64,000 nucleotides of DNA, from the NCBI GenBank assembly GCA_964521955.1, contig CAZFTX010000005.1, positions 804-64,803 on the forward strand, given 5' to 3'. A model generated the notes under the pieces. That model was not told the DNA's origin and made no database searches. It saw only the letters and a list, made by a program, of their open reading frames with translations. The translations under genes were made by a program, and so were the position numbers. Of this stretch, positions 20,494 to 56,527 are shown piece by piece (the stretch's first letter is position 1; each line of letters starts with the position of its first letter). The DNA comes from an uncultured Candidatus Saccharibacteria bacterium (GTDB taxonomy: Bacteria > Patescibacteriota > Doudnabacteria > UBA920).

Positions 20494-20553
20494 TAAATTC
20501 TTTATAAACAGTATTAGTTTAGGGTACTTAGTATAATTAGAATAAGTTCAATT

Positions 20554-23355: not shown

Positions 23356-23376
23356 CTATGCTAATTTTTTACAGTC

Positions 23377-25059: not shown

Positions 25060-25150
25060 CCCGACATGAGCTTGTGAGGCTCCGAGGGGTAGTAACGCGC
25101 GCGTTGCTGCCCCTTTTTCTATTAACCTAAATTTTGGTATTATTACCTAT

Positions 25151-26518
25151 ATGAATATAGACACAAAGATTTTTAAAGCCTATGACATTCGGGGTATTTA
25201 CCCAACCCAAATAAACGGAGAATTGGTCTACGAAATTGCCCAAGCTTACGCCCATTTTTTAAAGCCTAAAACCGTGGTGGTGGGCAGGGACATGAGGCTT
25301 TCCGGAGAAGAATTTCGTGACCAAATAATTAAAGCTTTAACCGACGCAGGGGTGAATGTTATAGACATTGGCCTGGTTTCAACTGACCAGTTGTATTTTG
25401 CGGCCGCTACTTTAAAAGTAGACGGAGGGATTCAAATTACAGCCAGTCATAACCCAAAAGAATATGCAGGCATGAAAATGGTTAGGGAAAAAGGCATGCC
25501 TATTTCGGGAGACAGTGGAATTTACGAAATTAGAGACATGGTAGTAAGTGGAAAGTCCCGAAGGGGACCCTTTGGGTTCCAAAGTGAAAAGAAAGGGACC
25601 ATAGAAACTAAAGAAATTTATGAAGATTATTACACTTACGTTTTAAAGCATTTTGAATATCAAAATTTTAAACCTTTAACCATAGTTGCTAACACCAACT
25701 TTGGCATGGCTAATCCGGCAGTGGAATATTTGCAAAAGGTTTTGCCTGTAAAGTTTTTAAAAATAGTTAATAACACCATCGACGGTACTTTTCCTAAAGG
25801 CAGGCCGGACCCGCTAGTTTCAGAAAACCGGGGAGAAACAATTGAAGAAATAAAAACTTTAAAGCCGGACTTAGGTGTAGCTTGGGACGCCGACGCTGAC
25901 AGGTGTTTCTTTTTTGACGAACAGGGTAAGTTTGTCACCCCGGCTTACATTAACGCACTTCTTTCTAAGTATTACATAGAGAAATTTTCCGGCGGAAAAG
26001 TTATTCATGACACCAGGGTGGTTAGGGTCATTCAAAAAGCAGTTAAGCAGGCTGGGGGAGAAGCGGTTATGAATAAAGCGGGGCACTCTTTTATTAAAGA
26101 ACGCATGATAAAAGAACAGGCAGTCTTTGGTTCAGAGACTTCCGGACATTATTATTTTAAAGATAATTTTTATTTGGATAACGGACTTTTTCCTTTTTTA
26201 GCAGTGTTGGACATGCTTTCAAAGGAAAATAAAACTTTCAGCGAAGTTTTAAAACCCATGCGTGAGAAGTTTTTTGTTTCAGAAGAAATAAATTTTAAAG
26301 TACAAACAGAAAATATTTTAGAAGAGTTAAAACAAAGCTATAAAGACGCAGAGGTAGACTCAACTGACGGGTATAGTTTTAACTACCCAGATTGGCGGTT
26401 TAACGTGAGAAAGAGTAATACGGAAAATTTACTTAGAATAAATATAGAAGCAGACAGTGAAAAGTTGCTTGAAGAAAAAACTAAAGAAGTAAGTTTGTTA
26501 ATAAAAAAATTAGGCTAG
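25151..26518 (+). CDS. phosphomannomutase/phosphoglucomutase (alpha-D-phosphohexomutase family)
   Basis: 455 aa; KAYDIRGIY N-terminus, TASHNP active-site serine loop, four-domain layout. Confidence 0.85.
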   Translation: MNIDTKIFKAYDIRGIYPTQINGELVYEIAQAYAHFLKPKTVVVGRDMRLSGEEFRDQIIKALTDAGVNVIDIGLVSTDQLYFAAATLKVDGGIQITASHNPKEYAGMKMVREKGMPISGDSGIYEIRDMVVSGKSRRGPFGFQSEKKGTIETKEIYEDYYTYVLKHFEYQNFKPLTIVANTNFGMANPAVEYLQKVLPVKFLKIVNNTIDGTFPKGRPDPLVSENRGETIEEIKTLKPDLGVAWDADADRCFFFDEQGKFVTPAYINALLSKYYIEKFSGGKVIHDTRVVRVIQKAVKQAGGEAVMNKAGHSFIKERMIKEQAVFGSETSGHYYFKDNFYLDNGLFPFLAVLDMLSKENKTFSEVLKPMREKFFVSEEINFKVQTENILEELKQSYKDAEVDSTDGYSFNYPDWRFNVRKSNTENLLRINIEADSEKLLEEKTKEVSLLIKKLG

Positions 26519-26527
26519 AAAAGGCGA

Positions 26528-26563
26528 AACGGACAACCCTGTGCAGGGGTTGTCCGTTTTTTG
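26528..26563 (+). terminator. intrinsic terminator
   Basis: AACGGACAACCCUGUGCAGGGGUUGUCCGUUUUUUGG. Confidence 0.6.
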
Positions 26564-26565
26564 GC

Positions 26566-26838
26566 TCACGAAGCCTGGTGAAGGAGAGCCTTTCGGCTTA
26601 CAACGCTAATGGCGAGGTGGCCATTTTCAGCTTCGGGTTGGTTCCCTTTTTTGTTTTTGGCGATGGCAGTGACTGCGTCCCCAGACACTTTCACTGATCC
26701 GGGAATCATCCAAAATCCGTTCCATGGTCTGCCTTCGGAGATGCGAGACCGTATTTCGCACGCCAGTTGTTTTGCCCGGATGGATCCGTCCGATACGACG
26801 GTAACTTCAAACATTTCCGGCCATTGAAACAATTCCAT
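26566..26838 (-). CDS. hypothetical protein (GC-rich module)
   Basis: Start taken at MELFQWPEM with GGAGGGGG 6 nt upstream, 91 aa; roughly 55% GC; no family recognised. Confidence 0.4.
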   Translation of the reverse strand: MELFQWPEMFEVTVVSDGSIRAKQLACEIRSRISEGRPWNGFWMIPGSVKVSGDAVTAIAKNKKGNQPEAENGHLAISVVSRKALLHQAS

Positions 26839-26880
26839 TTTACCCCCTCCTCTCTCAAACAAACAATCGGCACGCTATGT

Positions 26881-32406: not shown

Positions 32407-32576
32407 AAATTGAAAGTTTTTTACTTGGAATTCTAACTGGTGAATTATAACTAAAATTACCGGTTTAAGTCAAGAAGCAAGACAGAATTAACCTAATCTC
32501 TAATTGTCCTAATTATTCAAAAAAATGCAAAGAAAGTTTTTAGGTTAATTAGTAATTAGGTCAATTAGAATAATTT

Positions 32577-34511: not shown

Positions 34512-34694
34512 GTTATAAAGTTATTTAACAATTATTCTAATTATAGTAGGCTTGTAAATAAAAATCCAAAGCGACACTAAAATACGAATTACATGCGAAT
34601 GACACTAATACTTAAATACTCTTCACAAAAGTCATGTTTTAAGCTAATATTGCAGGCAAGAATAGAGGTTGTTTAACAACCGGAAAGAGGGAAT

Positions 34695-34844
34695 ATGGAC
34701 AGTAGGTTTGAGGGTAACAACGTATGTGTTGGCGGGGCGCTGGTTTGTGGTCTCGTCGTGGTTGGTCTGTTTCTTTGCGCACTGTACTTCGGCGCAAAGT
34801 TCGTTGGACAGTTGGGCATGAGCCACCCGTTCGCGGGATTGTAG
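34695..34844 (+). CDS. small single-TM protein (49 aa), GC-rich two-gene cassette, gene 1
   Basis: AAAGAGGG RBS 6 nt upstream of the ATG; MDSRFEGNNVCVGGALVCGLVVVGLFLCALYFGAKFVGQLGMSHPFAGL. Below the ORF-track size cutoff. Confidence 0.3.
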   Translation: MDSRFEGNNVCVGGALVCGLVVVGLFLCALYFGAKFVGQLGMSHPFAGL

Positions 34845-34856
34845 AGAGGTGCTGGC

Positions 34857-35072
34857 ATGGAAAACAGATCTTGGCGGATTTTTTTGTGGGTTGTGGTTGT
34901 GGTTACGGTTTTGGCGCTGGTATTTATGTCAGTCGCTTTGGCAAAGAATAATGAAGGCAGGCTCTTTCTCCTGTGCTTCAAAGTCCTTGCTGTGGTGACT
35001 GGCTACTTTGGGGAAGCTAATTGGCGACAGGGCAGTGGTAACAGCGCTCAGTCTCGTGACGGCAAACAGTGA
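34857..35072 (+). CDS. small membrane protein (71 aa), GC-rich cassette, gene 2
   Basis: GAGAGG RBS; hydrophobic core WRIFLWVVVVVTVLALVFMSVALA; followed by hairpins at ~35100..35190. Confidence 0.4.
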   Translation: MENRSWRIFLWVVVVVTVLALVFMSVALAKNNEGRLFLLCFKVLAVVTGYFGEANWRQGSGNSAQSRDGKQ

Positions 35073-35420
35073 GAGCTTGGCAAAACAGAAATCTATTTCC
35101 AGCAGTAATCCGGAGCCCCAGCGGGGCGGTTCGGATTAGCCGGGTGAGCAGCGCGCTACGAGCGCGATGTTTACCCGGTTTAATTTTGTCTTGTTTCTAA
35201 GTATTTCAATTATTTCTCTTATTTCTGGAGCGGGATAAACCTATTTTCCTTATAAGCTAAGAGCTATTGTCTATAAGCTGTCTTAGGCTCTTGCTCAACC
35301 CGTATTTTTGTGGTAGACTTTTTATCAGTTTGTTTTTTCTACAGAAACAAACATTACTTTACAGATATCTGCAGATTTTTATTTGAGTTTAGTTTTTTTA
35401 GAATAATTAGAACAATTTTT

Positions 35421-38261: not shown

Positions 38262-38330
38262 AATTATTCTAAGTACGCTAATTACTCTAATTATTCTAAA
38301 ATAGATTTAGGACAATTAGAACAATAAAAA

Positions 38331-38378
38331 ACAGCCCGGACACCTCTGGAGTGAACCAGAGGGCCGGGTTGTTTTGTT
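38331..38378. terminator. bidirectional terminator between uvrA and PEP-CTERM gene
   Basis: CAGCCCGGACACCUCUGG...CCAGAGGGCCGGGUUGUUUUGUUG. Confidence 0.45.
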
Positions 38379-38404
38379 GCACGCGGCCAAAAGTTGGCCG
38401 CGTG

Positions 38405-38617
38405 CTACTTCTTGCGGTTCTTCCGCCACGCGGCAAACCCAATTGCCGCCACGCCGGCGCCCATGAGGCCGATGGTGGCCGGTTCGGGCACTTCGGAAGG
38501 GGTGCTGCCGTCGGTCGGTGCGCAGTTGTTGTCACTGCAGTCGGTGGCTTGGGCGAAATTCACGGAGCTAAGCAGAATCGTCAATGCGGTTGTGAGGAGA
38601 AGTTTCCTCATAGACAC
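38405..38617 (-). CDS. mini PEP-CTERM protein (signal peptide + ~20 aa Cys-containing mature region + PEP-CTERM sorting signal)
   Basis: 70 aa: MSMRKLLLTTALTILLSSVNFAQA/TDCSDNNCAPTDGSTPSE/VPEPATIGLMGAGVAAIGFAAWRKNRKK; roughly 60% GC. Confidence 0.7.
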   Translation of the reverse strand: MSMRKLLLTTALTILLSSVNFAQATDCSDNNCAPTDGSTPSEVPEPATIGLMGAGVAAIGFAAWRKNRKK

Positions 38618-38746
38618 CTCCTAGTGTCGGCTGGAACAACGCCATTTTTTAGGGCTTGCGATGAAACATGCAAGACCTTTTGACCCACAAGAAAATGAGT
38701 CCCTCTTTATGATTGATTTCGTATTCTACTACTTTTAGGGGTGGGT

Positions 38747-38868
38747 GTCAACCCAGTAATACAACATTTGATATTTAATAAAAAAATAGTGTTATGAAAT
38801 ATTAAGCTTTGTATAAGCATGTGTTTTTGTATAAATATAAAATCAAATGTTGATATACTGGGTCAACC
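38747..38868. repeat. 122 bp palindromic (MITE-like) element with ~25-30 bp terminal inverted repeats, copy 1
   Basis: GTCAACCCAGTAATACAACATTTGAT...ATCAAATGTTGATATACTGGGTCAACC. It is 97% identical to 39797..39917 and lies ~130 bp upstream of the minus-strand PEP-CTERM gene start. Confidence 0.7.
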
Positions 38869-38965
38869 TTCTTATGTTAAAAGAAAAGAGCGAACCGTCA
38901 CGTGACTGCGGTTCGCTCTTTTTGCGTTGTTAGGCGCTCTTGTTACTCCCGCATGGAGCGGAAGT

Positions 38966-39658
38966 CTAGAGCTTGTTGTTGCGTCGACGTCGGTGGAGGA
39001 ACAGCAGGCCTCCGAGACCTGCGCCCATGAGTACGTACGTGCCGGGCTCCGGAACTTCGCCCGGACGTTCATCGCCAAACAGGTACTGAGTGAATGTCAC
39101 AGAGTTGAGCCTTGTTTGACCGTTGCTGCGTACGCGAAGAAGCGTTTGTTCCCATGCTCCGAAAGCGCCGACGTTGTCGCGTAGAAACGTTCCCGCCGCG
39201 TAAGTGTTGTCGTACCAGTGATCCACGGATCCGTCGCCGTGAAGCAGGGTTTCCACCGTATGTGGTGTTCCGGCAACGCGCGGAGTGAGGTCAAAGAACA
39301 CAAACGTTTCAATCGCCGGTGCGTTGCTGTAGCGTTCGTAGCCGAGCAGAGAAGCGCCGAACAAGGATCCGTTTTGTGTACGCGGGTTGAGACCGTTGCT
39401 CAAGTTCTGCTGGAACATGTCGATGTTGGCGTTGGGATTGTCTTCGTAGCTCACCGACGCATAGGTTGAGCCGCTGTTGATGAAGATGCCGACCTCGGTG
39501 TTGGAATTCTGGGTGATGGTGATTGTGCCGTCGCCGTTGTCGGTAAACGTGCCGTCGCCGTATGTGGTCCACGTAAGACCACCGAAGTCAATGGTCGCGG
39601 CGTTGGCCGAGAGGGCCGCAACGGTCGCGAGAATCAAGAGAACGAGAAATTGCTTCAT
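38966..39658 (-). CDS. PEP-CTERM domain secreted protein
   Basis: 230 aa; signal peptide, Gly/Thr/Asn-rich body, C-terminal EVPEPGTYVLMGAGLGGLLFLHRRRRNNKL; GGAGG RBS; GC-rich codons. Confidence 0.8.
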   Translation of the reverse strand: MKQFLVLLILATVAALSANAATIDFGGLTWTTYGDGTFTDNGDGTITITQNSNTEVGIFINSGSTYASVSYEDNPNANIDMFQQNLSNGLNPRTQNGSLFGASLLGYERYSNAPAIETFVFFDLTPRVAGTPHTVETLLHGDGSVDHWYDNTYAAGTFLRDNVGAFGAWEQTLLRVRSNGQTRLNSVTFTQYLFGDERPGEVPEPGTYVLMGAGLGGLLFLHRRRRNNKL

Positions 39659-39796
39659 GACACCTCCGTGATGTGTCGGTTAGCACTACGCCTATTTTAG
39701 CCTTGCCTAAAAAATCCAAAGCAAGACTTTTTGCCTAACTAGTTATTAGGCCTCCTTATATAACGACTTATTAGTTTATAGTATTTCGGGCATGGG

Positions 39797-39917
39797 GTCA
39801 ACCCAGTAATACAACATTTGATATTTAATAAAAAATAGCGTTGTGAAATATTAAGCTTTGTATAAGTATGTGTTTTTGTATAAATATAAAATCAAATGTT
39901 GATATACTGGGTCAACC
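39797..39917. repeat. 122 bp palindromic (MITE-like) element, copy 2
   Basis: Near-identical to 38747..38868; ~140 bp upstream of the start of the 38966..39658 gene. Confidence 0.7.
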
Positions 39918-40194
39918 TTGTTAGGTAAATAAAAAAAGCCCCACGCAAATCGACGATTTCGATATTGGTGGGTAACTTTTTCGTTTGGAACTCCTAAGGT
40001 TCCTCCTGGTTGTGTCGCGTGTGAGTTTGCTTCGCACCCAAGCTCGTCTTAACGACGAACGGGAATTAGCCCCAAAGGGGCCAGTGGCTTTACATTCAAC
40101 CCTTTTTTAAAAGGATCTCCTCTACACACAACGGTTGTGGTTGTAAGATGCGTTTTCGGCGGTGCTCGCCTTGCGCACCTCATGATCTTGTTCC

Positions 40195-41520
40195 TCAAGC
40201 CTGCGCGGCTCGGGTGTCAATCACTTGTTGCGCGGCCTCCGAAGGGGGCGTGCTTGCGATGAGCCAGACTCGGCCGTTGGGATTGCTTGAATAACGGATG
40301 TTCAAACCCCTCCAGCCAAGACTTTCCATGCTCCTCCGAAGATCTTGGGCCTGTTCCAAGCCTTGTTTGCCGGCGCCGATTTGGACTTCTGCCGCGCCAG
40401 TTGTTCGGTCAATGTTCGGTTCTCGGTCAATCCCTTGTGAAAGCAGAAACTCCCTGAACTTTCCAACGAGCTCGTTTGGGGAATTCGCTTCAATTGGGAT
40501 AACCTTGTTTATTCTGGAAGGCAGTTTCGCCTGTTGTGGTCGCTTGTTTTCCTTGGAGTGTGCCCAAAGGCAGTATCCGAGTATAACAAGCAGAAAGAAG
40601 CAAGCGCCGCCCACTATTGAGCCAACCAGAATGAGGTTGTTGGTGGGTTGTTTTGTTACCACTTTCGCTTCGCCCTTCGCGAGACCGTTGCTGTCCTTGG
40701 CCGGAGCTTCTTCACAGTCAGCCGATGCGGCTGACATGATGTCAAAGCTCATGGAACCGTTTGGACTATTTGGCCTTTGGAAGCAGGGCATTTTGCTTTG
40801 CGGAATGGGCAGGGGCCCACGCCGGACAGCAGTTTGCGCAGGCGGGGGAGGAAGGGCTTTCGCAACTTGGGGTTTTGCCTGTTTCTGAACTGGTTGTTCA
40901 ACCTTAGGCGTTACTTTGGTTGCTATTTGCTTTTTCTCTTTTGCCGCCGTCGGCACTTTTGCCACTCCTGCCGGTTTCGGGGTTGCTTTCACCGCGACCT
41001 TGGCCGGAGCCTTGGGCGCGAGTGGTTTCGGAGCTGTTGCGACAACAGCCTTGGGGGCTGGAGCGGATTTCTTCACGGGAGTCGGGACAGCGGCCTTGGC
41101 CACTGCCGGCGACTTTTTGGCTGGGGTTCTGGTTTGGAGTGCGGGCTTCTTCGTGCCAATTGGTTCGGGCACGGGAGTCATTGCAGCCACGCCACTGTTG
41201 ACGTCGCTGACCACGTACTTGCCGGTTGGCATGTAGCGCCAAACTTCGGCGCGACAATTGCCGACAAACGCAACCTCGCTTCCAACTTCCGCCTTCGGGA
41301 AGTTGACTCGGATGAGCTTTTGGTTTTCCGGCGTTACCGTGACAGTGAACACCAGCTTTTCAACTTCGCAAAAGGCTCCGCGGAACATGCGAGCGAAGTG
41401 GCTCGCAGTTTGTCCGGGTGCCAAAATCACTTCCTGTGGCAACTTAACTTTCTCTTCTTGGGCAAGCCCAAGAGAGGAGAGAGCTGCTGCAAGAAGCAAA
41501 AGCCGAGATGTGTTAAACAT
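40195..41520 (-). CDS. Pro/Ala/Lys-rich membrane protein (signal peptide, PAK low-complexity region, TM, C-terminal globular domain)
   Basis: 441 aa; MFNTSRLLLLAAALSSLGLA signal, ~120 aa of AP/AK/PK repeats, TM LILVGSIVGGACFFLLVILGYCLW, then a 110 aa C-terminal domain. GC-rich. Confidence 0.55.
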   Translation of the reverse strand: MFNTSRLLLLAAALSSLGLAQEEKVKLPQEVILAPGQTASHFARMFRGAFCEVEKLVFTVTVTPENQKLIRVNFPKAEVGSEVAFVGNCRAEVWRYMPTGKYVVSDVNSGVAAMTPVPEPIGTKKPALQTRTPAKKSPAVAKAAVPTPVKKSAPAPKAVVATAPKPLAPKAPAKVAVKATPKPAGVAKVPTAAKEKKQIATKVTPKVEQPVQKQAKPQVAKALPPPPAQTAVRRGPLPIPQSKMPCFQRPNSPNGSMSFDIMSAASADCEEAPAKDSNGLAKGEAKVVTKQPTNNLILVGSIVGGACFFLLVILGYCLWAHSKENKRPQQAKLPSRINKVIPIEANSPNELVGKFREFLLSQGIDREPNIDRTTGAAEVQIGAGKQGLEQAQDLRRSMESLGWRGLNIRYSSNPNGRVWLIASTPPSEAAQQVIDTRAAQA

Positions 41521-41842
41521 CTTTTTTGGCCTCCTCTTCAGTTGTGAATCTAACTAAACTTCAGACCAAAAACTTCTGGTCCTGAAAAAAATCTAACTAG
41601 GTAGTAGCTTGTTAGCTAGTAGCTTTTTAGATACCTATCAGCAAAAGAAGTTTTTTTGATTTTTAGAACAATTAGGTAAATTAGAACAATTAGAATAATT
41701 CAGTATTTTTTCTTTTTTGACTTTACACTTTAACATTTTCTTTGATTTTTGTCAATGTATATTTTGCAGATTCTAATCTAAAGCGGGACCAGCTCCGTTA
41801 GAGGTTGGTTATTTTAAAAATAACCGTAAGCTCTAAGCGGGG

Positions 41843-41971
41843 GTTGACCCAGTAGAGCTACATTGCAAATATGTTTTTGTTTTATTCAGTATAAATAAGA
41901 GCATTTTTTTATAAAACGTTTAATTAGGAATTCAATTGCAATGTGATTCTACTGGGTTGACAATTTCTCTC
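41843..41971. repeat. palindromic (MITE-like) element, variant copy 3 (GTTGACCCAGTAGAG...CTACTGGGTTGAC)
   Basis: Shares the CCCAGTA terminal core and a CAxCATTGxAA inner arm with copies 1/2. It lies ~175 bp upstream of the third PEP-CTERM gene. Confidence 0.55.
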
Positions 41972-42146
41972 TTATATATTACGATGTTTGGTGCTACAGG
42001 GGTCGATTTTTTGATCCCTGTTTGTACGTTGTGTGTACACACTACGGTAGTTGGACAGCACTGCGCTGTCACAACTTACCGTCAACCGCGGTTCTTTAGA
42101 CCCCACCTTGAAGAGGGTGGGACAAATCCACGGAGGATTGAGTACC

Positions 42147-42854
42147 ATGAAGTTTAAGAGGAAGAAGCCCCAGACCATTGTGTCATGGGGTAAAATGATG
42201 TTTGCGATCGCTCTGATTGCCATGTTGGCCGGCCTCACGGCCGCGCCGGCGAACGCGGCGGTGATTGGACCAGGTGGATCTGGAGTGGCGTCTGATTTCG
42301 GAGTCATTTCCGGCACCGTCTTGGTGGAAACTACTGTGCTCGGGGTCGTGGGTGTTCCCACGGCAACCTTTACCGGTGATTACGCATACTCTGTGATTGA
42401 CGAGGGTGGCGGGATTCTCGCGTTTCTGTACCAGTTCAGCAACTGGGCCAGTTCCGATGATCCGGTGCTTCGCACGACTCATAGCTCATTCACCGGGTTC
42501 GTTACCGACGTTGGCTACACCACAGTCGTACCGGTTGGTACCACGGTGTTCAGCGCCGGCGGCGTAGCCTCGACGGATGTCTCGCGCAGTGGCAGTGGCA
42601 GTGTGGTTCGGTATGACTATGATGCGGGTGTGGATCCGGGTACGTTTACCTACATCATGGCCATTCGTGTCACTGCTGATTACTGGTCGCGTGGTGGTTC
42701 ATTCACGGCTCAAGATGGAAGCGTGGGAGCCGTGACGGCAGCTAATCCCGAATCGGTTCCCGAGCCCGGCACGTACGCGCTCATGGGCGGCGGCCTGTTG
42801 GCCCTCGCTGCCCTGCGTCGGCGCAACAAGGGAGGTGACGACACCTCCAACTAG
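42147..42854 (+). CDS. PEP-CTERM domain secreted protein
   Basis: Start at MKFKRKKP (GGAGG RBS; the ORF-track 42051 start was rejected). Signal/TM, Gly/Ser/Thr/Val-rich body, C-terminal SVPEPGTYALMGGGLLALAALRRRNKGGDDTSN. Confidence 0.75.
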   Translation: MKFKRKKPQTIVSWGKMMFAIALIAMLAGLTAAPANAAVIGPGGSGVASDFGVISGTVLVETTVLGVVGVPTATFTGDYAYSVIDEGGGILAFLYQFSNWASSDDPVLRTTHSSFTGFVTDVGYTTVVPVGTTVFSAGGVASTDVSRSGSGSVVRYDYDAGVDPGTFTYIMAIRVTADYWSRGGSFTAQDGSVGAVTAANPESVPEPGTYALMGGGLLALAALRRRNKGGDDTSN

Positions 42855-43098
42855 CGGTCTTCTGCTGACTGAGCCGAACCCCCGTTCGTAAGGGGTGTCG
42901 GACCGGCTCATGAAGCGGACGGGGAGAAGGGTTACCACGGCTCTTCTCCCTACGATTTCAAGCAGTGTTTAGTTTTGAGTTCGACCTGTACGCTGGTGGC
43001 GCAAGCTATCAATCGCGTTTGGGTCGCGCTGGTCGCAACTTATTGGTTACGGTCGCCCATCTCCAGTGGCGGTTGTTTCCTGGTTGCGGTCAGTATTT

Positions 43099-43139
43099 AG
43101 CGGGCGGGTCTCCACCAGAGACCCCCCGCCTCTTTTTTT
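43099..43139 (+). terminator. intrinsic terminator
   Basis: GCGGGCGGGUCUC-CACCA-GAGACCCCCCGCC followed by UCUUUUUUUA. Confidence 0.5.
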
Positions 43140-43179
43140 ATTCAACACCATTTTTTGACTATTTTTCCTTTACCTCGAC

Positions 43180-43213
43180 CACTATGATACTGTCCAGTAT
43201 CATAGTGGTTTTA
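43180..43213. repeat. 34 bp perfect palindrome AACCACTATGATACTGTCCAGTATCATAGTGGTT, copy 1
   Basis: Identical copy at 53576..53609; followed by TTTATTTTTT. Confidence 0.6.
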
Positions 43214-43980
43214 TTTTTTAAGTTTAATTGTTTGAATTTTAAAATATAATTGTTCGATGTTTTTTTGTTTCTATGTTTGAATGCTCGCATGCTCAAATGC
43301 TTGTATGTTTTTACGAAAGTCATGCTCTAGACAGGTTTGGGGGATTGTGATATTCTGCTTTTTACAAAAAGGGGGAGAAATAACAAAGAATTTTGGTCTT
43401 GGTCGCAGGGTACTTTGGGGAAGTGGTTTTCCTTAGGCCTTGTGACTTAGGGGTGGCAGGCGTTTTGTAAGAAGCGCAGTTTGTAAGACAGAGCCGCGCT
43501 GGTGAAGCTTGCGAGCGCCTGCTTAACCTTTTGGTCTTCCCGGACTCCAGACCCCTCTATGGGTACCGGGATTGGGCGGCGGGGTTGTTTCCCTCCATCC
43601 TCGCCGCTCCAAAATTTCTTCAAGCTCCCTTGCCCGCTCATGTGGGAGTCCATGAGTGCCGTAGCAGGGAAAAGTCCGGGTGAGTTGCCCCCAGCAGGCA
43701 CCACCCGGATCTTATTTATCCAGCACCATTTTTTGACTCCAGAAAATAATGCTGGATTTATCTAAAATTATTGTTCTTTTTAGAATAATTAGGTAAATTA
43801 GAATAATTTATTGGTGTTTATAAACCCTCTTTCCACATATTTTGTCCACATTTGGTGGATAAATACCCCTTTTACCCCCGCTATAGGCGGGCTTTTTTAT
43901 TTGCTAAAGTAATCCTACAAGTGTTTTAGTAATAGTTTTTAGAAACAAAATTTTAAAGAACCAAGGCTTTTTAAAAAAGC

Positions 43981-45204: not shown

Positions 45205-45252
45205 TGGTGAATTATTCTAAGTACCCTAATTGATCTAATTATTCTAAAAGGG

Positions 45253-45612
45253 ATGCAAGATGAAAAAAATACAAAATATGACTTAGAAGAAAGAACAGCA
45301 AAGTTTGGTGAAGAAATTATTAGATTTTGTGTTCAATTACCAAGAAATGAAGTTACTAAGCCATTAATAAATCAGTTAGTGAAGTGCGGAACAAGTGTTG
45401 GTGCAAACTATTCAGAGGCAGACGACGCAGAAAGTCCTAAAGATTTTAAGCACAAGATTGGGATATGTAAGAAAGAGTCTAGGGAATGTAAGCATTTTTT
45501 AAGAATGTTATCGGTAGCAACTCCGGAAAAGACCGAACTAATTAGAGTTTTATGGAACGAAGCAAAAGAGTTACATTTAATTTTCAACGCAATTTATAGA
45601 AAGATTAATTAA
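45253..45612 (+). CDS. four-helix-bundle protein (23S rRNA intervening-sequence protein family)
   Basis: 119 aa; LVKCGTSVGANYSEADDAESPKDFKHKIGICKKESRECKHFLRML matches the family signature. Confidence 0.7.
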   Translation: MQDEKNTKYDLEERTAKFGEEIIRFCVQLPRNEVTKPLINQLVKCGTSVGANYSEADDAESPKDFKHKIGICKKESRECKHFLRMLSVATPEKTELIRVLWNEAKELHLIFNAIYRKIN

Positions 45613-45665
45613 TTGGGATTTATTTAGGTTAATTAGAGTAATTAGAACAATTAGAATAATTCAGT

Positions 45666-47206: not shown

Positions 47207-47251
47207 AAAAAATTAACCTAATTATTCTAATTTCTAATTAACCTAAAATTT

Positions 47252-48712
47252 ATGAAAATAAAAAATTTGTTTAAAAGGTCGCAAGGAGGATATACCACTG
47301 CAGAAATGCTAATTGCTTTTTTCATTATGACCGTGGCTATTTCCGGAGTTAGTACTATTGCTTTTGGAAACCAGTCAGTTTCTGTGGACACTGAAAAAAA
47401 CAGTGAAGCTTTGCGTATTGCCCAAGCTGTAGCAGAAGACAAAAGAGCCATGGCAAAAACTAACTTCGACAGTTTACAAACTTCAGACTGCGACACTGCC
47501 GGGTATGAGTGTGAAGTTTTGGTTTCCAGTCCTCAGCAGAACTTAAAACAAATTACCACAACGGTTTCTTGGGTAGAAGGTAACAGGCCGCAAAGCGTGG
47601 TTTTAAAAAGCCGAGTGGCAAACTTAGAGGAAGAAGAAGCAACCGGCGGAACCGAAGGTGGTGGTAACAGAGAAAGTTCAGGGGGTGACGACGGAGGAGA
47701 TGATGGTACGGGAAGTGGTGGGGGTAGTGGAGGAAGTAATGGTTTTTGTCCAACGGTTAATAATATTTTCTCTCAAGACACTACAGCTAGTTTGGCTGGT
47801 AAAACTACCGGATTGGACGTTGTTAATAATTTAATATACCTAAGTTTAGATACGAGTGGAGATAATACTTTAAGTGATTTTGTTATTCTCGATTCAAATA
47901 ATTTAAATAAAATTGTAAAAATTTCAGAACTCAAAACTCAATCCGGAGGCTTAAATGCTATAGATATTGCAAATGGGTACGCGTATACTGTGGGGAAAAA
48001 GTTGGGAGCACAGTTAGAAATAATAAATGTTTCGAGTTCTACTAGTCCAAGTTTAGAAAGTTTTTTAGATTTATCATCCGCTGGGCTTAGTATATTTTAT
48101 AGGGACAATAAAGTTTATGCAGGTACCGAAAACAATCCCAGTGGCCCAGAGTTTTATGTAATAGATGTGACTGATTCCAGTTTGCCTTCGGTTTTAGGTA
48201 GTTTTGAAATTGGTGGGGGAGTTAATCAAATTGTGGTTCGGGGAAATACAGCCTATCTTGCAACTACTCACGGAGCTAAGGATATTGTAGTATTAGACGT
48301 TTCAAATCCTACCAGTATTTTAGAGACAAGAGTTTACAATAATTCCTATGCTGCAGCTGCACAGAGTTTGTATTTCTATGATAGTAAAATTTTTGCAGGT
48401 TCAAATCCTAACCTATTAGTCTTGGACCCAAGCACTAATCCAGTGAATTTAACTGCTTCAAATTCCATGCCTATGAATATTAATGATATTGTTATTTCTG
48501 GAAACTTAGGTTTTCTTGGAACAGATTTGGCAAATAAACGTTTTCAAATATGGGATATGAGTAATTTATCCGACATGAAATATTGCACAAGTTCAGATAA
48601 TATTAGTCCTTTGTTTAACGCTCCGGTTACAGGGATAATTTATCAAAACGGTTTGGCTTATGTTGCCATGTATAAAAATGGAATATCGGTTCGTGTTGTA
48701 AAGTTGAATTAA
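47252..48712 (+). CDS. pilin-like protein fused to Gly/Asp-rich linker and LVIVD-repeat beta-propeller-like domain
   Basis: 486 aa; prepilin-like N-terminus SQGG/YTTAEMLIAFFIM (Glu+5), then an EEEATGGTEGGGN...GSGGGSGGSNG linker. Repeated motifs follow: LEIINVSSSTSP, FYVIDVTDSSLP, DIVVLDVSNPTS, LLVLDPSTNPV, FQIWDMSNLSD. Confidence 0.55.
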   Translation: MKIKNLFKRSQGGYTTAEMLIAFFIMTVAISGVSTIAFGNQSVSVDTEKNSEALRIAQAVAEDKRAMAKTNFDSLQTSDCDTAGYECEVLVSSPQQNLKQITTTVSWVEGNRPQSVVLKSRVANLEEEEATGGTEGGGNRESSGGDDGGDDGTGSGGGSGGSNGFCPTVNNIFSQDTTASLAGKTTGLDVVNNLIYLSLDTSGDNTLSDFVILDSNNLNKIVKISELKTQSGGLNAIDIANGYAYTVGKKLGAQLEIINVSSSTSPSLESFLDLSSAGLSIFYRDNKVYAGTENNPSGPEFYVIDVTDSSLPSVLGSFEIGGGVNQIVVRGNTAYLATTHGAKDIVVLDVSNPTSILETRVYNNSYAAAAQSLYFYDSKIFAGSNPNLLVLDPSTNPVNLTASNSMPMNINDIVISGNLGFLGTDLANKRFQIWDMSNLSDMKYCTSSDNISPLFNAPVTGIIYQNGLAYVAMYKNGISVRVVKLN

Positions 48713-49193: not shown

Positions 49194-49637
49194 ATGAAAT
49201 TTAAAAATTATAAAAATATTCTTTGCCCTAAACCCTTAGCACTTAGCGCTGGCTATATCGCCATCACTTCTGTAATGATTATTTCTCTATTACTTATAAC
49301 CATTACTGTGGCATTAAGTACAAGTAACTATTTTAGTCGGTTTAACATTTTAGAAAGTGAGTATAAAACCAGAAGTTTAGGTTTAGCAGAAGCATGTGTT
49401 GACCAAGCACTTTACAGGTTGGTACAAAAATTAGACACGCCAAATAATTTTAACGTAAACATAGGAAACAGCCAGTGTAAAATTGTTTCCATAAGTCCTG
49501 CAGGAGCAGCTAGAACCATAAAAACTCAAGGAGAGTTTCAGAAAAGCTTTTCAAATATTAAAGTGGTAGTAAATACTCCGGGGTATACAGTCAGTTCTTG
49601 GCAGGAATGTAAAACAGAAAATGACCCTTGCCAGTAA
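49194..49637 (+). CDS. membrane-anchored hypothetical protein, possible minor pilin
   Basis: 147 aa with N-terminal TM LALSAGYIAITSVMIISLLLITITVAL; placement between pilin genes. Confidence 0.35.
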   Translation: MKFKNYKNILCPKPLALSAGYIAITSVMIISLLLITITVALSTSNYFSRFNILESEYKTRSLGLAEACVDQALYRLVQKLDTPNNFNVNIGNSQCKIVSISPAGAARTIKTQGEFQKSFSNIKVVVNTPGYTVSSWQECKTENDPCQ

Positions 49638-49702
49638 GTACTGGTAGGTGTATAAATAATGAAAGTTAATTAACAATAATTTTAATAAGTAAAGGAAAAT
49701 AT

Positions 49703-50188
49703 ATGAATAAAGAGAAAGAACAGAGTGGATTTACACTCATAGAAATTTTGGTGGTTATTGGTATTATTGCCATTTTGGCAGTTATAGTGCTCATAGCCAT
49801 TAACCCAGGCAGACAGTTTGCTCAGTCTAGAGACACTCAAAGGACTAGTAATGTGAATGCTTTACTAAATGCTATTGGTCAACGTATGGCAGATAATAAA
49901 GGTGTGTTTGAAGGAAGTTTTTTTGATGGGACTAGTACAACAACTTGTCCTATTATTACCACAGGAGCTGATTTATCTATTTTGAGCGGTGGAACTGCTG
50001 GTAGTGGAGAGGTAAATCTTTCCTGTCTTGTGCCAACATATATTCCAGCTTTGCCAACTGATCCTAAGCATACAAGTAGTAATGGTAATGATACTTTGTA
50101 TGACATTTTTGTTAACTCTTCAACAAAAAGAACAACTGTAAAAGCTCCATTAGCAGAAATTAATAAACCAATAGAAATCGAGCGCTAG
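49703..50188 (+). CDS. type IV pilin (major pilin candidate)
   Basis: 161 aa; MNKEKEQSG/FTLIEILVVIGIIAILAVIVLIAINP class III signal with Glu+5. Confidence 0.85.
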   Translation: MNKEKEQSGFTLIEILVVIGIIAILAVIVLIAINPGRQFAQSRDTQRTSNVNALLNAIGQRMADNKGVFEGSFFDGTSTTTCPIITTGADLSILSGGTAGSGEVNLSCLVPTYIPALPTDPKHTSSNGNDTLYDIFVNSSTKRTTVKAPLAEINKPIEIER

Positions 50189-50202
50189 TATTTTATTTTT
50201 TA

Positions 50203-50238
50203 AACCCCGCTTTGGAAATTCCAAAGCGGGGTTTTTGT
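50203..50238 (+). terminator. intrinsic terminator after major pilin
   Basis: AACCCCGCUUUGG-AAAUU-CCAAAGCGGGGUU followed by UUUGUU. Confidence 0.6.
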
Positions 50239-50253
50239 TATGCTAAAACAGGC

Positions 50254-50282
50254 TTGATTTTCAAATTTTGGCATTATATAAT
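50254..50282 (+). promoter_or_regulatory. sigma70-like promoter TTGATT-17-TATAAT for PEP-CTERM gene
   Basis: Hexamers with 17 nt spacing, ~45 nt upstream of the AAGGAGG RBS. Confidence 0.45.
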
Positions 50283-50324
50283 AGGTAGTCGCAGCTAGAA
50301 GTACGCTAGCGACCACAAGGAGGA

Positions 50325-50993
50325 ATGCGCATGGTTTATTTGCGCTTTCGTGTAGTTTTGCTCGGAGCTCTTCTGGGCATCTTGCCAATTTCTCAGGCCT
50401 TCGGAGCCACGTTGACGTACGATTCTCTCACGGGAAGCACGGAAACGATTGGAACTTGGGGAGCACAAGCAACTGAGAAGTATGGTCAGACGACTACTGT
50501 ACCAGTCACACACACGCTTCTGACATCGTTTGCTTTTTCAATGAATTTCAACGGCGACAGCGCCGCGAGTGCAAACCTTCAGGTGCATGTGTACGGCTGG
50601 GACGGCAGCGCGCCAACAGGGGCGGCCCTTTGGTCCAGTGGCGTGTTGAACGCTTCCGGCGCCGGGTTCATTGACCAGTCTTTGAACATCGGTCTGAATT
50701 TGGTGGGTGGCCAGAACATTGTCTTGTACGTTGAGGCTCTTTCTGGTGACATTGCCGTATTCAAACGGCCGGGAATTTCACAACCGCTCATTGGGGTCGA
50801 CGTTTTTCCCGGAGGGTTTGTATTCCAGAATGGCATTGAGCCGTGGGTTCAAGATTTCATGGGTACTGACACCGACCTGGGCGTCATTCTCACATGGGAT
50901 CAAACGGAGGGCGGCGGCGGGGAAGTTCCTGAACCTTCTACGGTCGCTCTTGTCGGCGCTGGTGTTGCGGCGTTGTTGTTTCGCCGGCGCTAA
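50325..50993 (+). CDS. PEP-CTERM domain secreted protein embedded in pilus locus
   Basis: 222 aa (start may be the second ATG at 50331); signal peptide, then a C-terminal GGGGEVPEPSTVALVGAGVAALLFRRR; roughly 55% GC. Confidence 0.8.
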   Translation: MRMVYLRFRVVLLGALLGILPISQAFGATLTYDSLTGSTETIGTWGAQATEKYGQTTTVPVTHTLLTSFAFSMNFNGDSAASANLQVHVYGWDGSAPTGAALWSSGVLNASGAGFIDQSLNIGLNLVGGQNIVLYVEALSGDIAVFKRPGISQPLIGVDVFPGGFVFQNGIEPWVQDFMGTDTDLGVILTWDQTEGGGGEVPEPSTVALVGAGVAALLFRRR

Positions 50994-51227
50994 CGGTAAG
51001 CTCGCCACTTCGTGGCATCGTGGTCCGGGACCTGTACTCTTTAGGGGGTATGGGTTCCGGGCTGTTTTTTTAAACACAATATCAACAATGCGGAAATTTT
51101 CAATATTTATTCTCTTATTTAAGCCACTTTTTATTTGAAATTTTGTGTAGAATTTAAGTATTTTGTTTGCTAAACTTAAGGAAGTAAAAAATACTGTTTA
51201 GAAATAAAACTAAATATAAAAATATAT

Positions 51228-52361
51228 ATGAAAGTTAAAGTAAAGGTTGTTACCAACAATATTAATAGTAATAAAAAGTTTTTGAAAAAAAATTTGCTTT
51301 ATAAAGCAACAGCGTTTTTATGTATAGTTACTTTGGTTTTTTCTTTAATGTCTTCTAAAGACAAAGTTGTTGCAGCTGACTATCCTACTGCTACTTTGAT
51401 TGTGAAGAAAATTGTTGAAAACAATAATGGCGGTACCAAAGTTTCCTCTGACTTTACTATGTATGTAATTGGTTTGTCCGGAGTTCCTGGACCTGTAGCA
51501 ACACCTGACACTTATTCAACATCTTTTCCTGGTGACGCTTTTGGAACGCCAATCCTTTTAGGAGTAGGGAACTATCAAGTCACAGAAACTGTTTTGCCGG
51601 GTTATGCTGTAACTTACTCTGACGAATGTAGGAGTTCTACAGGCGGAATTCTAGAAGAAAACGTTGAAAGAACTTGTATAGTTACCAACTCAGACATTCC
51701 TGCAAAATTAAACGTAGTAGTGCAGGTGTTAAACGATAACGGTGGAAGTAAAGTGCCAGGTGACTTTAATGTTGTTGTAACTGGCGGTAATGCCAACCCA
51801 AGAAATTTTCCCGGAGATGAAAGCGGTACAGAAGTAGTCATGCACTCCGGAGTATATTCTGTAGACGTAGATCCTGACAGTAATTACGACATTACTTATT
51901 CTCCTGAATGTGCGGACAGTTTAGCTTTAGCTGAAAGTGTGACTTGTACTGTGAATATAAACGACATTGAACAAACAGGTGGTGGAGGTACTGGTGGTGA
52001 TGGGGAAGACGAAGAAGAAACACCCCCTCCTGGTGGTGGCGGTGGAAATTCGAGCGGTGGTGGCGCAGGTGGCCCAACTCCAACAGGTCCAGGATCTTCG
52101 GGAGGTGGCGGAACTTCTTCCGGCGGCAGCGGAATTCCAACCCCACCAACTCAGCCTAGTGACGGTGAAGTTTTAGGAGTTTCTACTACCAATGTCCCAA
52201 GTATTTCCATGCCCACAGACGGTGGTATACAGCCCGAGGGACAAGTATTAGGAGCTTCAACTGAATTGCCAAGAACCGGTACAAATGCTATGAGTGTTGT
52301 TATTTCCTTACTTGCTGGACTTTTGGTTTTTGTTCCCAAAATGAAGTTAAAGTTCAAGTAA
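51228..52361 (+). CDS. LPXTG-type cell-wall-anchor protein with two tandem beta-sandwich (prealbumin/Cna-B-like) domains
   Basis: 377 aa; N-terminal TM/signal; repeats ATLIVKKIVENNNGGTKVSSDFTMYV and AKLNVVVQVLNDNGGSKVPGDFNVVV; Gly/Ser/Pro-rich stalk. The C-terminus is LPRTG followed by a hydrophobic stretch and KMKLKFK. Confidence 0.75.
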   Translation: MKVKVKVVTNNINSNKKFLKKNLLYKATAFLCIVTLVFSLMSSKDKVVAADYPTATLIVKKIVENNNGGTKVSSDFTMYVIGLSGVPGPVATPDTYSTSFPGDAFGTPILLGVGNYQVTETVLPGYAVTYSDECRSSTGGILEENVERTCIVTNSDIPAKLNVVVQVLNDNGGSKVPGDFNVVVTGGNANPRNFPGDESGTEVVMHSGVYSVDVDPDSNYDITYSPECADSLALAESVTCTVNINDIEQTGGGGTGGDGEDEEETPPPGGGGGNSSGGGAGGPTPTGPGSSGGGGTSSGGSGIPTPPTQPSDGEVLGVSTTNVPSISMPTDGGIQPEGQVLGASTELPRTGTNAMSVVISLLAGLLVFVPKMKLKFK

Positions 52362-52416: not shown

Positions 52417-53001
52417 ATGAATAAGTTTAAAAAACCATTATTAGCAATTTTAGTTTTTACTATGGTTTTTATTGCGCTTAACTTTTCTTTTTTTAAGAAC
52501 AAATTTAACTTTACTTTTGAAGGTAGAAAAAGCATATACAAATCCCCGGCAGTTATACCCGTGATAAAAAAAGTTACGCCGAATTTTTTAACGATTGAAA
52601 CTTTAAACATAAAAGCCCCTATAGTTTATGTGGGAGAAAATAAAGAAGAAGTTTTTCAAACTGCCTTGCAAACCGGTGTAGTGCATTTTCCAGGGACTGC
52701 AAAACCCGGAGAATATGGAAATGTTTACATACTAGGACATAGTTCAGACTATGCTTGGGCTAAAGGGGAGTTTAAAACCGTTTTTGCAAGTTTACCTGAG
52801 ATTCAAAAAGGTGTGGAAATTACTGTGAGTGATTCTGAAGGCAACCCTTTTACTTACACAGTTACAGGCACTAAAATTGTTGCCCCGGAGGAGCTTTCGG
52901 TTTTAGACCAAGACTTTAAAAAGAAAACTTTAACTTTGCAAACTTCTTACCCCCTAGGCACTGCTTTAAAACGTTTTATAGTAACTGCCGAATTGAAATA
53001 A
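52417..53001 (+). CDS. sortase-family protein with Ser in place of the catalytic Cys
   Basis: 194 aa; N-terminal TM; VYILGHSS (His motif); KKTLTLQTSYP aligns with sortase QLTLITCDDY but has TCT (Ser) where TGT (Cys) is expected; KRFIVTAEL carries the conserved Arg. Confidence 0.65.
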   Translation: MNKFKKPLLAILVFTMVFIALNFSFFKNKFNFTFEGRKSIYKSPAVIPVIKKVTPNFLTIETLNIKAPIVYVGENKEEVFQTALQTGVVHFPGTAKPGEYGNVYILGHSSDYAWAKGEFKTVFASLPEIQKGVEITVSDSEGNPFTYTVTGTKIVAPEELSVLDQDFKKKTLTLQTSYPLGTALKRFIVTAELK

Positions 53002-53610: not shown

Positions 53611-55026
53611 TTGGGGATTTTTATGAAGAAGGTAAGAATTAAAGTAGAAAGTTACTTAGGGGGTTATGTGGCTATGGAAATGATTTTAGCCTTGTTTGTT
53701 TTTGCTCTCTTGGTTCCGGCTGCAGTGGTTTTAATTTTTTCAAACCAATTTGCAATTATAGACACTGAAAACAACCATACAAGTTTAATTTTAGCTAAAG
53801 AAGTTTTTGAAGAAACTCAAGCAGTTGGTAGGAGTAATTTTAGTTCACTCTCACCTTTAGCGGAGATTCCCGAAGGTGATTTTTTCAAAGACAATTATTT
53901 AGAAGAAATTTCAGACTATGCCTTTTTTTCTGACAGTCGTTCCTGGCATAAAAACTATACTTTAAAAAAAGTTGAACTGCCAACCGCATTTATAGACTGG
54001 AAAAACGCTCTAGGAAAAGACAGTTGTGCTTTAAGTTTTTCCGACAGTTGGGGATCACCGGTTTTAAAAGGAAGTATGAATTTGGGTTTAGGAAACGAAG
54101 CTTTAGATTTAGATGTTCATAATAAAAAAGTTTATATTACCGCTAATTTCTCTCCGGTCTCACAGAGAGATTTTTTTATAGTTGAGGTTACAGATCAAAA
54201 TACTCCTTTTCTTATTTCTTCGCTTCATTCTGGACCTGGGTTATCTGCTGTGCATGTTGCAGGTGATTATGCTTATGTTGCAAATGCAACCCTGACCAAT
54301 CAGTTTCAAGTAATAAGTATTGCAGATAACAATAATCCTATTTTAGTTAAGACTTACAAAATACCGGGGGTTACAGGCACCGGTGGAGCTGGTGTTGGTA
54401 AAAGTATTTTTTATTTAAATAAAAAAATTTATATTGGACTTACAAAAGCCACCGGCCCAGAGTTTCATATTCTTGATGTTGCAATTCCAAACTCGCCGGT
54501 GTTGCTTGGTGCTTTTGAAACTAACACAGTTGTTAGCAGTATTTTTGTAAAAGATGGACTCGCTTATCTGGCAACTGGGGAAGGGGATCAGTTTAGAATT
54601 TTGGACGTAAGTAATCCGAGTAATATTTTTGAACTTGGTAGTTTAGGTTGGCTTAGCCAGTCAGGCCAAAGTGTTACTGTTTTAGGTAATCAAGTAGTTT
54701 TTGGAAGAGCAGGAGGACTTTCTAACTCAGGGCAGCATGAACTTTTTTTGTTAGATGTTAAAAACAAAACATTACCCACATCAGTTTTTTCTTCAGATTT
54801 AAATTTTAGTATTAGGGATATTTTTTGGAGAGATGGATTGGTGTTTTTAGCGACTAACAAAGCTGGGGCGGAATTTCAAGTGTTTGAAAAGTTGGGTAAT
54901 GTATTGGTTTTTAAATCAGGCTTGGATTTAGGCAGTCCGGCTACAGCTTTAGACTGTGAAGATGAAAGCATATTTGTGCTTTCAGAAAATGGTAAATTGA
55001 GCATACTTAATCCGGGTTCTTATTGA
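53611..55026 (+). CDS. pilin-like protein fused to LVIVD-repeat beta-propeller-like domain (paralog of 47252..48712)
   Basis: 471 aa; prepilin-like SYLGG/YVAMEMILALFVFALLV (Glu+5); repeats FFIVEVTDQNTP, FQVISIADNNNP, FHILDVAIPNSP, FRILDVSNPSN, LFLLDVKNKTLP. Confidence 0.55.
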   Translation: MGIFMKKVRIKVESYLGGYVAMEMILALFVFALLVPAAVVLIFSNQFAIIDTENNHTSLILAKEVFEETQAVGRSNFSSLSPLAEIPEGDFFKDNYLEEISDYAFFSDSRSWHKNYTLKKVELPTAFIDWKNALGKDSCALSFSDSWGSPVLKGSMNLGLGNEALDLDVHNKKVYITANFSPVSQRDFFIVEVTDQNTPFLISSLHSGPGLSAVHVAGDYAYVANATLTNQFQVISIADNNNPILVKTYKIPGVTGTGGAGVGKSIFYLNKKIYIGLTKATGPEFHILDVAIPNSPVLLGAFETNTVVSSIFVKDGLAYLATGEGDQFRILDVSNPSNIFELGSLGWLSQSGQSVTVLGNQVVFGRAGGLSNSGQHELFLLDVKNKTLPTSVFSSDLNFSIRDIFWRDGLVFLATNKAGAEFQVFEKLGNVLVFKSGLDLGSPATALDCEDESIFVLSENGKLSILNPGSY

Positions 55027-56424: not shown

Positions 56425-56527
56425 TTATTATGAGTAATAATTAATCTAATTTCTAATTAACCTAATTTACCTAAAACTCTCAATTATTTAGAACAATTAG
56501 AGTAAATAGAATAATTTTTTAATATTT

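Follow-up and report, generated by a model that had tools for sequence, protein, structure and literature searches.

A GC-rich PEP-CTERM gene is a long-kept resident of a pilus and surface-protein locus in Patescibacteria

The stretch of DNA analysed here, 64,000 nucleotides of contig CAZFTX010000005.1 (positions 804 to 64,803; hereafter the window), carries a GC-rich gene for a PEP-CTERM protein directly after the major pilin gene of a type IV pilus operon. PEP-CTERM proteins are regarded as a hallmark of exosortase-bearing Gram-negative bacteria that produce exopolysaccharide (EPS). The host of this gene, in contrast, is a Patescibacterium, as the relatives of its PilC protein indicate, and a PEP-CTERM protein in such a setting is unusual and, in the open-access literature searched, unreported. 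The gene is a long-kept resident of its surface-protein locus and not a recent insertion, and its composition is foreign to its genome. The explanation that we favour, with moderate confidence, is that of an anciently acquired, separately transcribed PEP-CTERM surface adhesin that sits beside the pilus and sortase genes and is not part of the pilus.

The age of this residence is evident from the same locus in relatives. When species-representative genomes were scanned with PilC, almost all of the loci recovered came from metagenome-assembled genomes (MAGs) of Patescibacteria (candidate phyla radiation, CPR), with a best identity of 71%, and most of these loci keep the core order pilB-pilC-minor pilin-LVIVD-pilin-p147-major pilin. 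The closest loci with enough sequence come from three species-level Patescibacteria MAGs (L005, L007, and L008; PilC 61-66% identical), and in these the major pilin is followed, as in the window, by a GC-rich PEP-CTERM gene, an LPXTG protein gene, a sortase gene, and a second LVIVD gene. The PEP-CTERM proteins of these three loci (215-223 aa) are 26-37% identical to that of the window; for the proteins encoded alongside, identity is about 32-71%, with 59-62% for the sortase and 53-57% for the major pilin. Occupancy of the same slot at this PilC distance, together with such low identity between the orthologs, marks the gene as an old, retained resident, and its place in the locus became fixed before these three species and that of the window diverged. 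The original prediction had described the gene as inserted after the pilin; taken as a recent event, this description is overturned by the diverged orthologs. The conserved position relative to the pilus genes is confined to the clade with PilC identity of at least 61%, and in about 40 more distant Patescibacterial pilus loci no PEP-CTERM gene was found within 10 kb, the exception being L022, with two such genes upstream of pilB. In addition, the best non-self match of an exhaustive search, P0003, lies on L058 between the 3' end of uvrA and the start of an LPXTG protein gene (GC 0.57 against 0.43 in its flanks). Because the uvrA and LPXTG proteins of L058 closely resemble those of the window, this locus is taken as a further relative with a rearranged layout; here, as in L005, L007, and L008, the LPXTG ortholog directly follows the PEP-CTERM gene.

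A nearer comparison is offered by L003, a contig from ERR3169465 that is about 94% identical and shows the same order of pilin 3' end, terminator, promoter hexamers, untranslated region (UTR), gene, and terminator. Between the window and L003 the PEP-CTERM gene has a ratio of nonsynonymous to synonymous substitution (dN/dS) of 0.11 at a dS of 0.29 and is under purifying selection, and the promoter, UTR, and terminator regions hold few substitutions. A chance open reading frame (ORF) is excluded by this dN/dS, by the existence of orthologs, and by the 328 family representatives described below.

By the sequence criteria of the family, the product is a PEP-CTERM sorting-domain protein. Its last 22 residues (199-220; 50925-50990), VPEPSTVALVGAGVAALLFRRR, score 24.1 bits on TIGR02595 (cut-off 16), so that the hidden Markov model (HMM) bears out the original assignment, and 29.1 bits on PF07589 (cut-off 20.7). 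All three parts of the tail, namely, the P-E-P motif, a transmembrane (TM) helix, and a basic cluster, are present as VPEP-STVALVGAGVAALLF-RRR, and the tail is preceded by a glycine linker, GGGG (residues 194-197). At the other end, inspection points to a Sec signal peptide, MVYLRFR-VVLLGALLGILPI-SQAFG/A (residues 1-25; 50331-50405), that would be cleaved after AFG. The P-E-P-x-T motif is invariant in six Patescibacterial sequences that are otherwise 26-37% identical, where it forms the longest nearly contiguous invariant block; something, it can be argued, therefore still reads the motif. Between signal peptide and tail, an AF2 model built with 102 family sequences (predicted local distance difference test, pLDDT, 86.4) shows a helix at residues 2-15, 12 beta strands, and a helix at 202-219, with a beta-sandwich domain at about residues 26-192; no Pfam or NCBIfam model covers this N-terminal domain. 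Foldseek matches the model to carbohydrate-binding modules (CBM6/35/36/61), the Cwp84 lectin-like domain, the PHR domain, a baseplate domain of phage phi812, and phage tail/fibre proteins, with probability of about 1.0 and E values of 6e-6 to 3e-3 at TM scores of 0.3-0.5 and 8-17% identity. The model thus supports, at the level of fold only, a beta-sandwich of the binding or adhesion type; the predicted fold class is shared with the carbohydrate-binding and receptor-binding domains, whereas such values denote resemblance and not membership.

The gene stands apart from its genome in base composition. As had been noted originally (about 55% GC in AT-rich surroundings), its GC content is 0.54, whereas that of the host is about 0.39; GC runs at 0.51-0.57 across about 50300-51100 against 0.33 upstream and 0.19-0.35 downstream. 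The three codon positions (GC1/GC2/GC3) stand at 0.59/0.48/0.57 in the PEP-CTERM gene and 0.48/0.38/0.31 in pooled host genes, the four-fold codon families shift from T-ending in host genes to G- or C-ending here, and the 5' and 3' UTRs have GC contents of 0.59 and 0.53 against 0.31 and 0.20 in flanking intergenic DNA. Because GC3, codon endings, and UTRs all shift, amino-acid content alone does not account for the difference. Codon bias from high expression was considered and ruled out, as GC3 is lowest, at 0.22-0.25, in the genes of DnaK and the putative major pilin (0.22 in the latter). The same discordance recurs across five Patescibacterial lineages, in which the GC content of the gene is 0.13-0.17 above that of its flanks and GC3 is 0.48-0.64 against 0.22-0.42; there, too, codons end in G or C and the UTRs are rich in GC. 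In L005, L007, and L008, the orthologs have GC 0.53-0.55 and GC3 0.48-0.58, and their neighbours GC 0.35-0.44 and GC3 0.22-0.42.

The wider family became visible only by exhaustive search. A word-indexed homolog search found one close relative only and a profile gave eight matches, whereas an exhaustive HMMER search of 1.84 billion representatives returned 328 proteins at E ≤ 1e-3, the best at E = 1e-10 to 1e-26; a metagenome scan with the ortholog alignment gave tail-only matches in unrelated proteins. Family members, mostly of 210-240 aa, align end to end with the window protein and share the motifs TxTYGQTF, AWDGxxATG, YxGGxFVFxN, DLAF, and VPEP. Within this family the protein of the window has diverged, sharing about 24-36% identity with the other members, and its closest non-Patescibacterial matches reach only about 33-36%. 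Those members outside the clade whose context could be retrieved lie on contigs of conventional bacteria, with a LysR regulator, peptidase S9, cytochrome c, and PQQ enzymes as neighbours, and there the gene matches its genome in GC content (0.62 vs 0.63-0.65, 0.68 vs 0.71-0.73, and 0.48 vs 0.50). Among members with context, gene and genome are discordant in Patescibacteria only. A neighbour-joining tree of the full data places all seven Patescibacterial sequences in one clade, and L005, L007, and L008 group together in 192 of 200 bootstraps.

The predicted expression signals are those of an independent gene. The region 50254-50993 holds a single ORF on the + strand, ending at 50993. The ORF listing starts it at ATG 50325; ATG 50331 is the credible start because the Shine-Dalgarno sequence AAGGAGG lies 7 nt before it and only 1 nt before 50325, and the resulting 220-aa product is also given by independent gene calls, as the exact protein, in two other assemblies. 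The promoter TTGATT-17-TATAAT and the ribosome-binding site AAGGAGG named in the original prediction were both found; the former agrees with the consensus at 10 of 12 positions, ties for best in a consensus scan of 49600-51400, keeps both hexamers unchanged in L003, and would drive transcription from near 50289. The preceding gene is indeed a prepilin gene that is followed by a predicted terminator, a 15-bp stem at 50202-50234 with a T run, and this hairpin is kept in L003 with paired stem substitutions. With a second predicted hairpin and T run beyond its own stop codon, the PEP-CTERM gene appears to be a monocistronic, separate transcription unit between two terminators. The proposal that it lies inside the pilus operon consequently holds by position and fails transcriptionally, the terminators insulating the gene on both sides. 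Each ortholog follows a terminator-like hairpin of the preceding gene and has its own promoter-like site and GC-rich leader; these sites read TTGACT-17-TACAAT in L005, TTGACA-17-TATAGT in L058, and TTGACC-17-TAGATT in L008. An RNA leader or riboswitch was considered and dropped: at permissive E values Rfam gave no match in the window or the orthologous loci, and the predicted 5' UTR fold, which leaves the Shine-Dalgarno sequence unpaired, is about as stable as shuffled sequence (z = -0.12).

The system to which such a tail would ordinarily belong is the PEP-CTERM/exosortase protein-sorting system (TIGR02595, PF07589), reportedly described by Haft et al. in 2006 and 2012. The window protein resembles this system in its signal peptide, P-E-P motif, hydrophobic helix, and arginine cluster with scores above the HMM cut-offs, in its Gly-rich linker before the tail, and in the presence of several paralogs per genome. 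It differs in its Patescibacterial host with sortase/LPXTG anchoring next door, in that no exosortase is seen in the 64 kb or near the relatives' genes, and in that no EPS genes were found among the window proteins scanned. Because the enzyme is unseen, membership of the full system cannot be asserted. In the literature searched, Patescibacteria are not reported to have a PEP-CTERM sorting system, nothing links exosortase to Patescibacteria/CPR, and two papers that mention both PEP-CTERM and Patescibacteria do not connect them, PEP-CTERM appearing in one of these only as a title on Zoogloea floc formation in the reference list. The named PEP-CTERM subfamilies (NF038129, floc PepA NF033554, XDP1 NF041927, THxN, EDSAP-1, CCXG, QFxxD, and cistern) were tried and rejected, at 15.8-20.5 bits against cut-offs of 60-125, and have only the C-terminal tail in common with the window protein. 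With its own family of about 220 aa, on the other hand, it shares full-length homology, architecture, and length, a difference being that gene and genome disagree in GC content for the Patescibacterial copies and agree for those in other bacteria. Finally, the gene recalls the sortase-anchored LPXTG loci of monoderm bacteria in adjoining a SpaA-like LPXTG protein and a sortase, with which it probably forms one surface-display neighbourhood; its sorting signal, however, is PEP-CTERM and not LPXTG, nothing points to the sortase acting on it, and this sortase is presumably the partner of the LPRTG neighbour rather than of the PEP-CTERM protein.

In the favoured explanation, the ancestor of one Patescibacteria clade would have acquired the gene from conventional bacteria; purifying selection would have preserved it from then on, at a constant site between the major pilin gene and the LPXTG-protein/sortase pair. 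A transcript would run from the gene's consensus-like promoter, beyond the pilin terminator, to the gene's own terminator, and the product would be exported by Sec with removal of the signal peptide. A modelled beta-sandwich of about 170 residues, of lectin or receptor-binding type, would then be displayed outside the cell on a short glycine linker. The C-terminal PEP-TM-RRR tail would anchor the protein in the cytoplasmic membrane, with RRR as a stop-transfer signal; thereafter an exosortase-type enzyme with its gene elsewhere may cleave and transfer the tail, or the tail may simply be retained as an anchor. The protein is likely to act at the cell surface as an adhesin or a binder of glycans, alongside the pilus and not as part of it.

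Several points weigh against this explanation. After a single ancient acquisition, the GC3 of the gene should by now equal host values, as the synonymous sites would be long saturated when flanking proteins are only 32-71% identical, and it has not dropped. Monophyly of the Patescibacterial sequences is recovered in only 27 of 200 bootstraps. No exosortase was found in the 64-kb window by a Pfam scan of all proteins with at least four predicted TM segments (TerC, a Na/Ca exchanger, EamA, VIT1, PilC, and one 179-aa protein without a match) or among the neighbour proteins checked in relatives, about 10 kb either side of PilC. The promoter and terminator calls at this gene are consensus matches, and the structural matches, at these TM scores, reach the level of fold only, which makes the adhesin or glycan-binding role a suggestion of the model.

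The first two of these points also speak for turnover at a hot spot, in which the post-pilin slot, like the gap between uvrA and pilB, would repeatedly take up foreign GC-rich cassettes, so that the copies in different lineages would be separate or replacement acquisitions. GC3 is far above host values in every lineage; the uvrA-pilB gap measures 28-436 bp in the outgroups L021, L013, L024, and L047 and in the window, L006, L008, and L050 contains GC-rich DNA of differing content, 2.6-5.7 kb in length; and the post-pilin region of L006 holds a different GC-rich ORF with a degenerate tail. However, L005, L007, and L008 cluster firmly, all seven Patescibacterial sequences fall in one clade on the full data, and neither mobility genes nor flanking repeats were found around the 50.3-kb unit when the window repeats were searched. 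Repeated re-import would moreover lead one to expect close donors, and the search of 1.84 billion representatives shows no trace of a recent one. We regard turnover as unlikely, though it is the strongest of the rivals. The persistent GC-richness may stem from selection that acts on base composition or on the mRNA, from biased conversion between paralogs, or from hot-spot turnover.

A more speculative idea, which we regard as doubtful, is that this monoderm-like, host-dependent clade keeps PEP-CTERM proteins derived from diderms while lacking an exosortase itself. The tail would serve as a bare anchor or as a handle for the exosortase/EPS machinery of the host, tying the epibiont into the host matrix, and selection, not recent import, would keep the gene GC-rich.

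It is improbable that the protein is a functional component of the type IV pilus, such as a tip adhesin or an assembly factor co-expressed with the pilins. The original prediction had linked the PEP-CTERM family to pilus or surface biogenesis, and its physical side stands: the gene belongs by linkage to a pilus and surface-protein locus, and a conserved PEP-CTERM gene adjoins each end of the pilus operon, upstream of pilB and after the major pilin. A role in pilus biogenesis does not follow. The protein has no prepilin N-terminal motif (no N_methyl match), a strong terminator and its own promoter separate its gene from the pilin, the same pilus operon exists without it in the 40 or so other Patescibacterial loci, the L058 copy sits after uvrA instead, and in non-CPR bacteria the family occurs away from pilus genes.

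It is very improbable that the gene entered the pilus operon recently, by a horizontal insertion specific to this strain. The sharp compositional boundary and the gene's own promoter and terminator would suit such an event, but synteny already contradicts it, for the slot holds orthologs of only 26-37% identity, in genomes where the proteins around them share about 32-71%; the gene is also conserved by purifying selection in a lineage at a dS of 0.29, and the databases hold no close donor. A recent genomic island was rejected likewise: the composition deviates, but the gene is at the same site in relatives and lacks flanking repeats. Integron- or MITE-like (miniature inverted-repeat transposable element) capture was also considered and set aside, as neither the AT-rich inverted-repeat element nor the TTAGRAYAA array described below flanks the unit.

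An assembly chimera or contaminating DNA of a GC-rich organism, for which the GC shift and nothing else speaks, is refuted for practical purposes, as the original prediction had argued for the contig: the exact 220-aa protein is encoded on two independently assembled Logan contigs, from SRR16481187 and SRR31968663, that agree with the window at 100% identity, over 49605-51325 and 50063-51711, and span both junctions, the ERR3169465 contig (94%) has the same layout, and contigs from three other studies, of three other species, share the gene order.

Table 1. Coordinates in the window of the PEP-CTERM gene, its predicted signals, and neighbouring features.
Feature	Position	Strand	Basis
PEP-CTERM gene, GC-rich, 68 aa, uvrA-pilB island	38405..38611	-	PEP-CTERM matches
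PEP-CTERM gene, GC-rich, 230 aa, uvrA-pilB island	38966..39658	-	PEP-CTERM matches
PEP-CTERM gene, GC-rich, just upstream of pilB, different protein family	42147..42854	+	TIGR02595 and PF07589 matches
Putative major pilin, 161 aa, last gene of type IV pilus operon	49703..50188	+	N_methyl / TIGR02532 prepilin motif
Predicted intrinsic terminator of pilin gene, 15-bp stem, T-rich tail (hairpin 50202-50234 and T run)	50202..50241	+	Terminator scan
Candidate sigma-70-like promoter (-35 TTGATT 50254-50259, 17-nt spacer, -10 TATAAT 50277-50282)	50254..50282	+	Consensus scan
Predicted 5' UTR, GC-rich (0.59), Shine-Dalgarno AAGGAGG 50317-50323	50289..50330	+	Sequence, GC
PEP-CTERM coding sequence, 220 aa and stop	50331..50993	+	ORF, HMM matches, exact product in two assemblies, AF2, dN/dS
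Predicted intrinsic terminator of PEP-CTERM gene, long GC-rich hairpin 51020-51065 and T7	51020..51072	+	Terminator scan; conserved in L003
LPXTG (LPRTG) surface protein, SpaA-like prealbumin-fold domain	51228..52361	+	PF19403, E = 4.5e-9; LPRTG tail in translation
Sortase	52417..53001	+	PF04203, E = 4.4e-25; TIGR01076 above cut-off

The gene is, as originally counted, the fourth of its kind in the window (Table 1), and one to three PEP-CTERM paralogs per locus occur in L005-L008, L046, and L022. A second, unrelated PEP-CTERM family occupies the slot before pilB in the window, in L046 (34% identity), and in L008 (27%); because this slot and that after the major pilin are both occupied, PEP-CTERM genes bracket the pilus operon in this clade. 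Orthologs of the putative major pilin lie in the same position in L005-L008 and are 49-57% identical. Two large LVIVD-repeat (beta-propeller) proteins with pilin-like N-termini, encoded at 47252-48712 and 53611-55026, are conserved members of the pilus/surface-protein locus across Patescibacteria.

Other features of the locus may be recorded in their own right. In L003 (positions 1-60, against 50140-50188 of the window), the last 15 or so codons of the pilin are strongly different, with an indel, and the downstream sequence is conserved, which suggests either that the C-terminus of this pilin is hypervariable or that a recombination boundary lies at its stop codon. The L006 ORF (16723-17514) encodes a different secreted protein of 263 aa with a weak DUF4350 match; its tail, PDMPTWILAGTGGLGIWGVPEFRRRRRSRK, is a PEP-CTERM-like signal with an altered PEP motif, and AbiEii toxin-antitoxin genes adjoin it. 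Between pilB and pilC, a 119-aa gene of the 23S_rRNA_IVP family (PF05635) at 45208-45663 is flanked by 41-nt inverted arms made of TTAGRAYAA repeats, and gene and arms together may be a small inserted element; to this family also belong the Avd proteins found with diversity-generating retroelements.

The 5.7 kb between uvrA and pilB (38290-43770) form an island of GC-rich units separated by AT-rich spacers. Its GC-rich stretches, at 38291-38691, 38849-39743, 39932-41539, 41980-43199, and 43367-43767, include the three other PEP-CTERM genes and one stretch without a convincing ORF; in addition, 40195..41520 (- strand) encodes a secreted 441-aa protein with a P/A/K-rich spacer, one TM segment, and no family match. 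An AT-rich element of about 120 bp, with inverted-repeat arms of 25-30 nt (GGTCAACCCAGTAATACAACATTTGAT ... ATCAAATGTTGATATACTGGGTCAACC), occurs at 38746-38868, 39796-39917, and 41842-41962; two copies are 90-93% identical and the third is diverged, and the PEP-CTERM gene that precedes pilB has its TTGACA -35 box in the right arm of the third. The core of the element, TACTGGGTYRAC, occurs 6 times against 0.9 expected.

The tandem, 9-bp periodic AT-rich motif TTAGRAYAA is found at many intergenic sites (26 matches against 2.4 expected), for example, at 20519-20545, 32504-32573, 35398-35415, 38264-38324, 41663-41698, 43780-43806, 45212-45247, 45624-45659, 47213-47230, and 56457-56514. It has the look of a repeat spread through the intergenic regions of the genome, or of an array that binds a regulator, and no such array adjoins the 50.3-kb gene. 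Furthermore, AT-rich housekeeping genes have short GC-rich patches (0.49-0.53) between them, at 5620-6134, 22905-23385, 24599-25155, 26497-26880, and 34650-35210; they hold small ORFs only, with no informative family, and gave no Rfam match at a permissive threshold.

Overall, a conserved and positionally fixed set of PEP-CTERM genes brackets the type IV pilus operon and adjoins an LPXTG/sortase pair in a clade of Patescibacteria. The value of this finding lies in the conserved Patescibacterial context, the unseen exosortase, and the unexplained base composition, and not in the type of protein itself. It raises a sharp and checkable question, namely, whether an exosortase is encoded in these genomes. 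In addition, a donor-like composition that has lasted across deeply diverged lineages, with no recent donor visible, provides a clean test of how foreign genes drift toward host composition in tiny genomes. Finally, Patescibacteria live attached to other microbes, the molecules of this attachment being mostly unknown, and the PEP-CTERM proteins of this locus offer concrete candidate adhesins for them.

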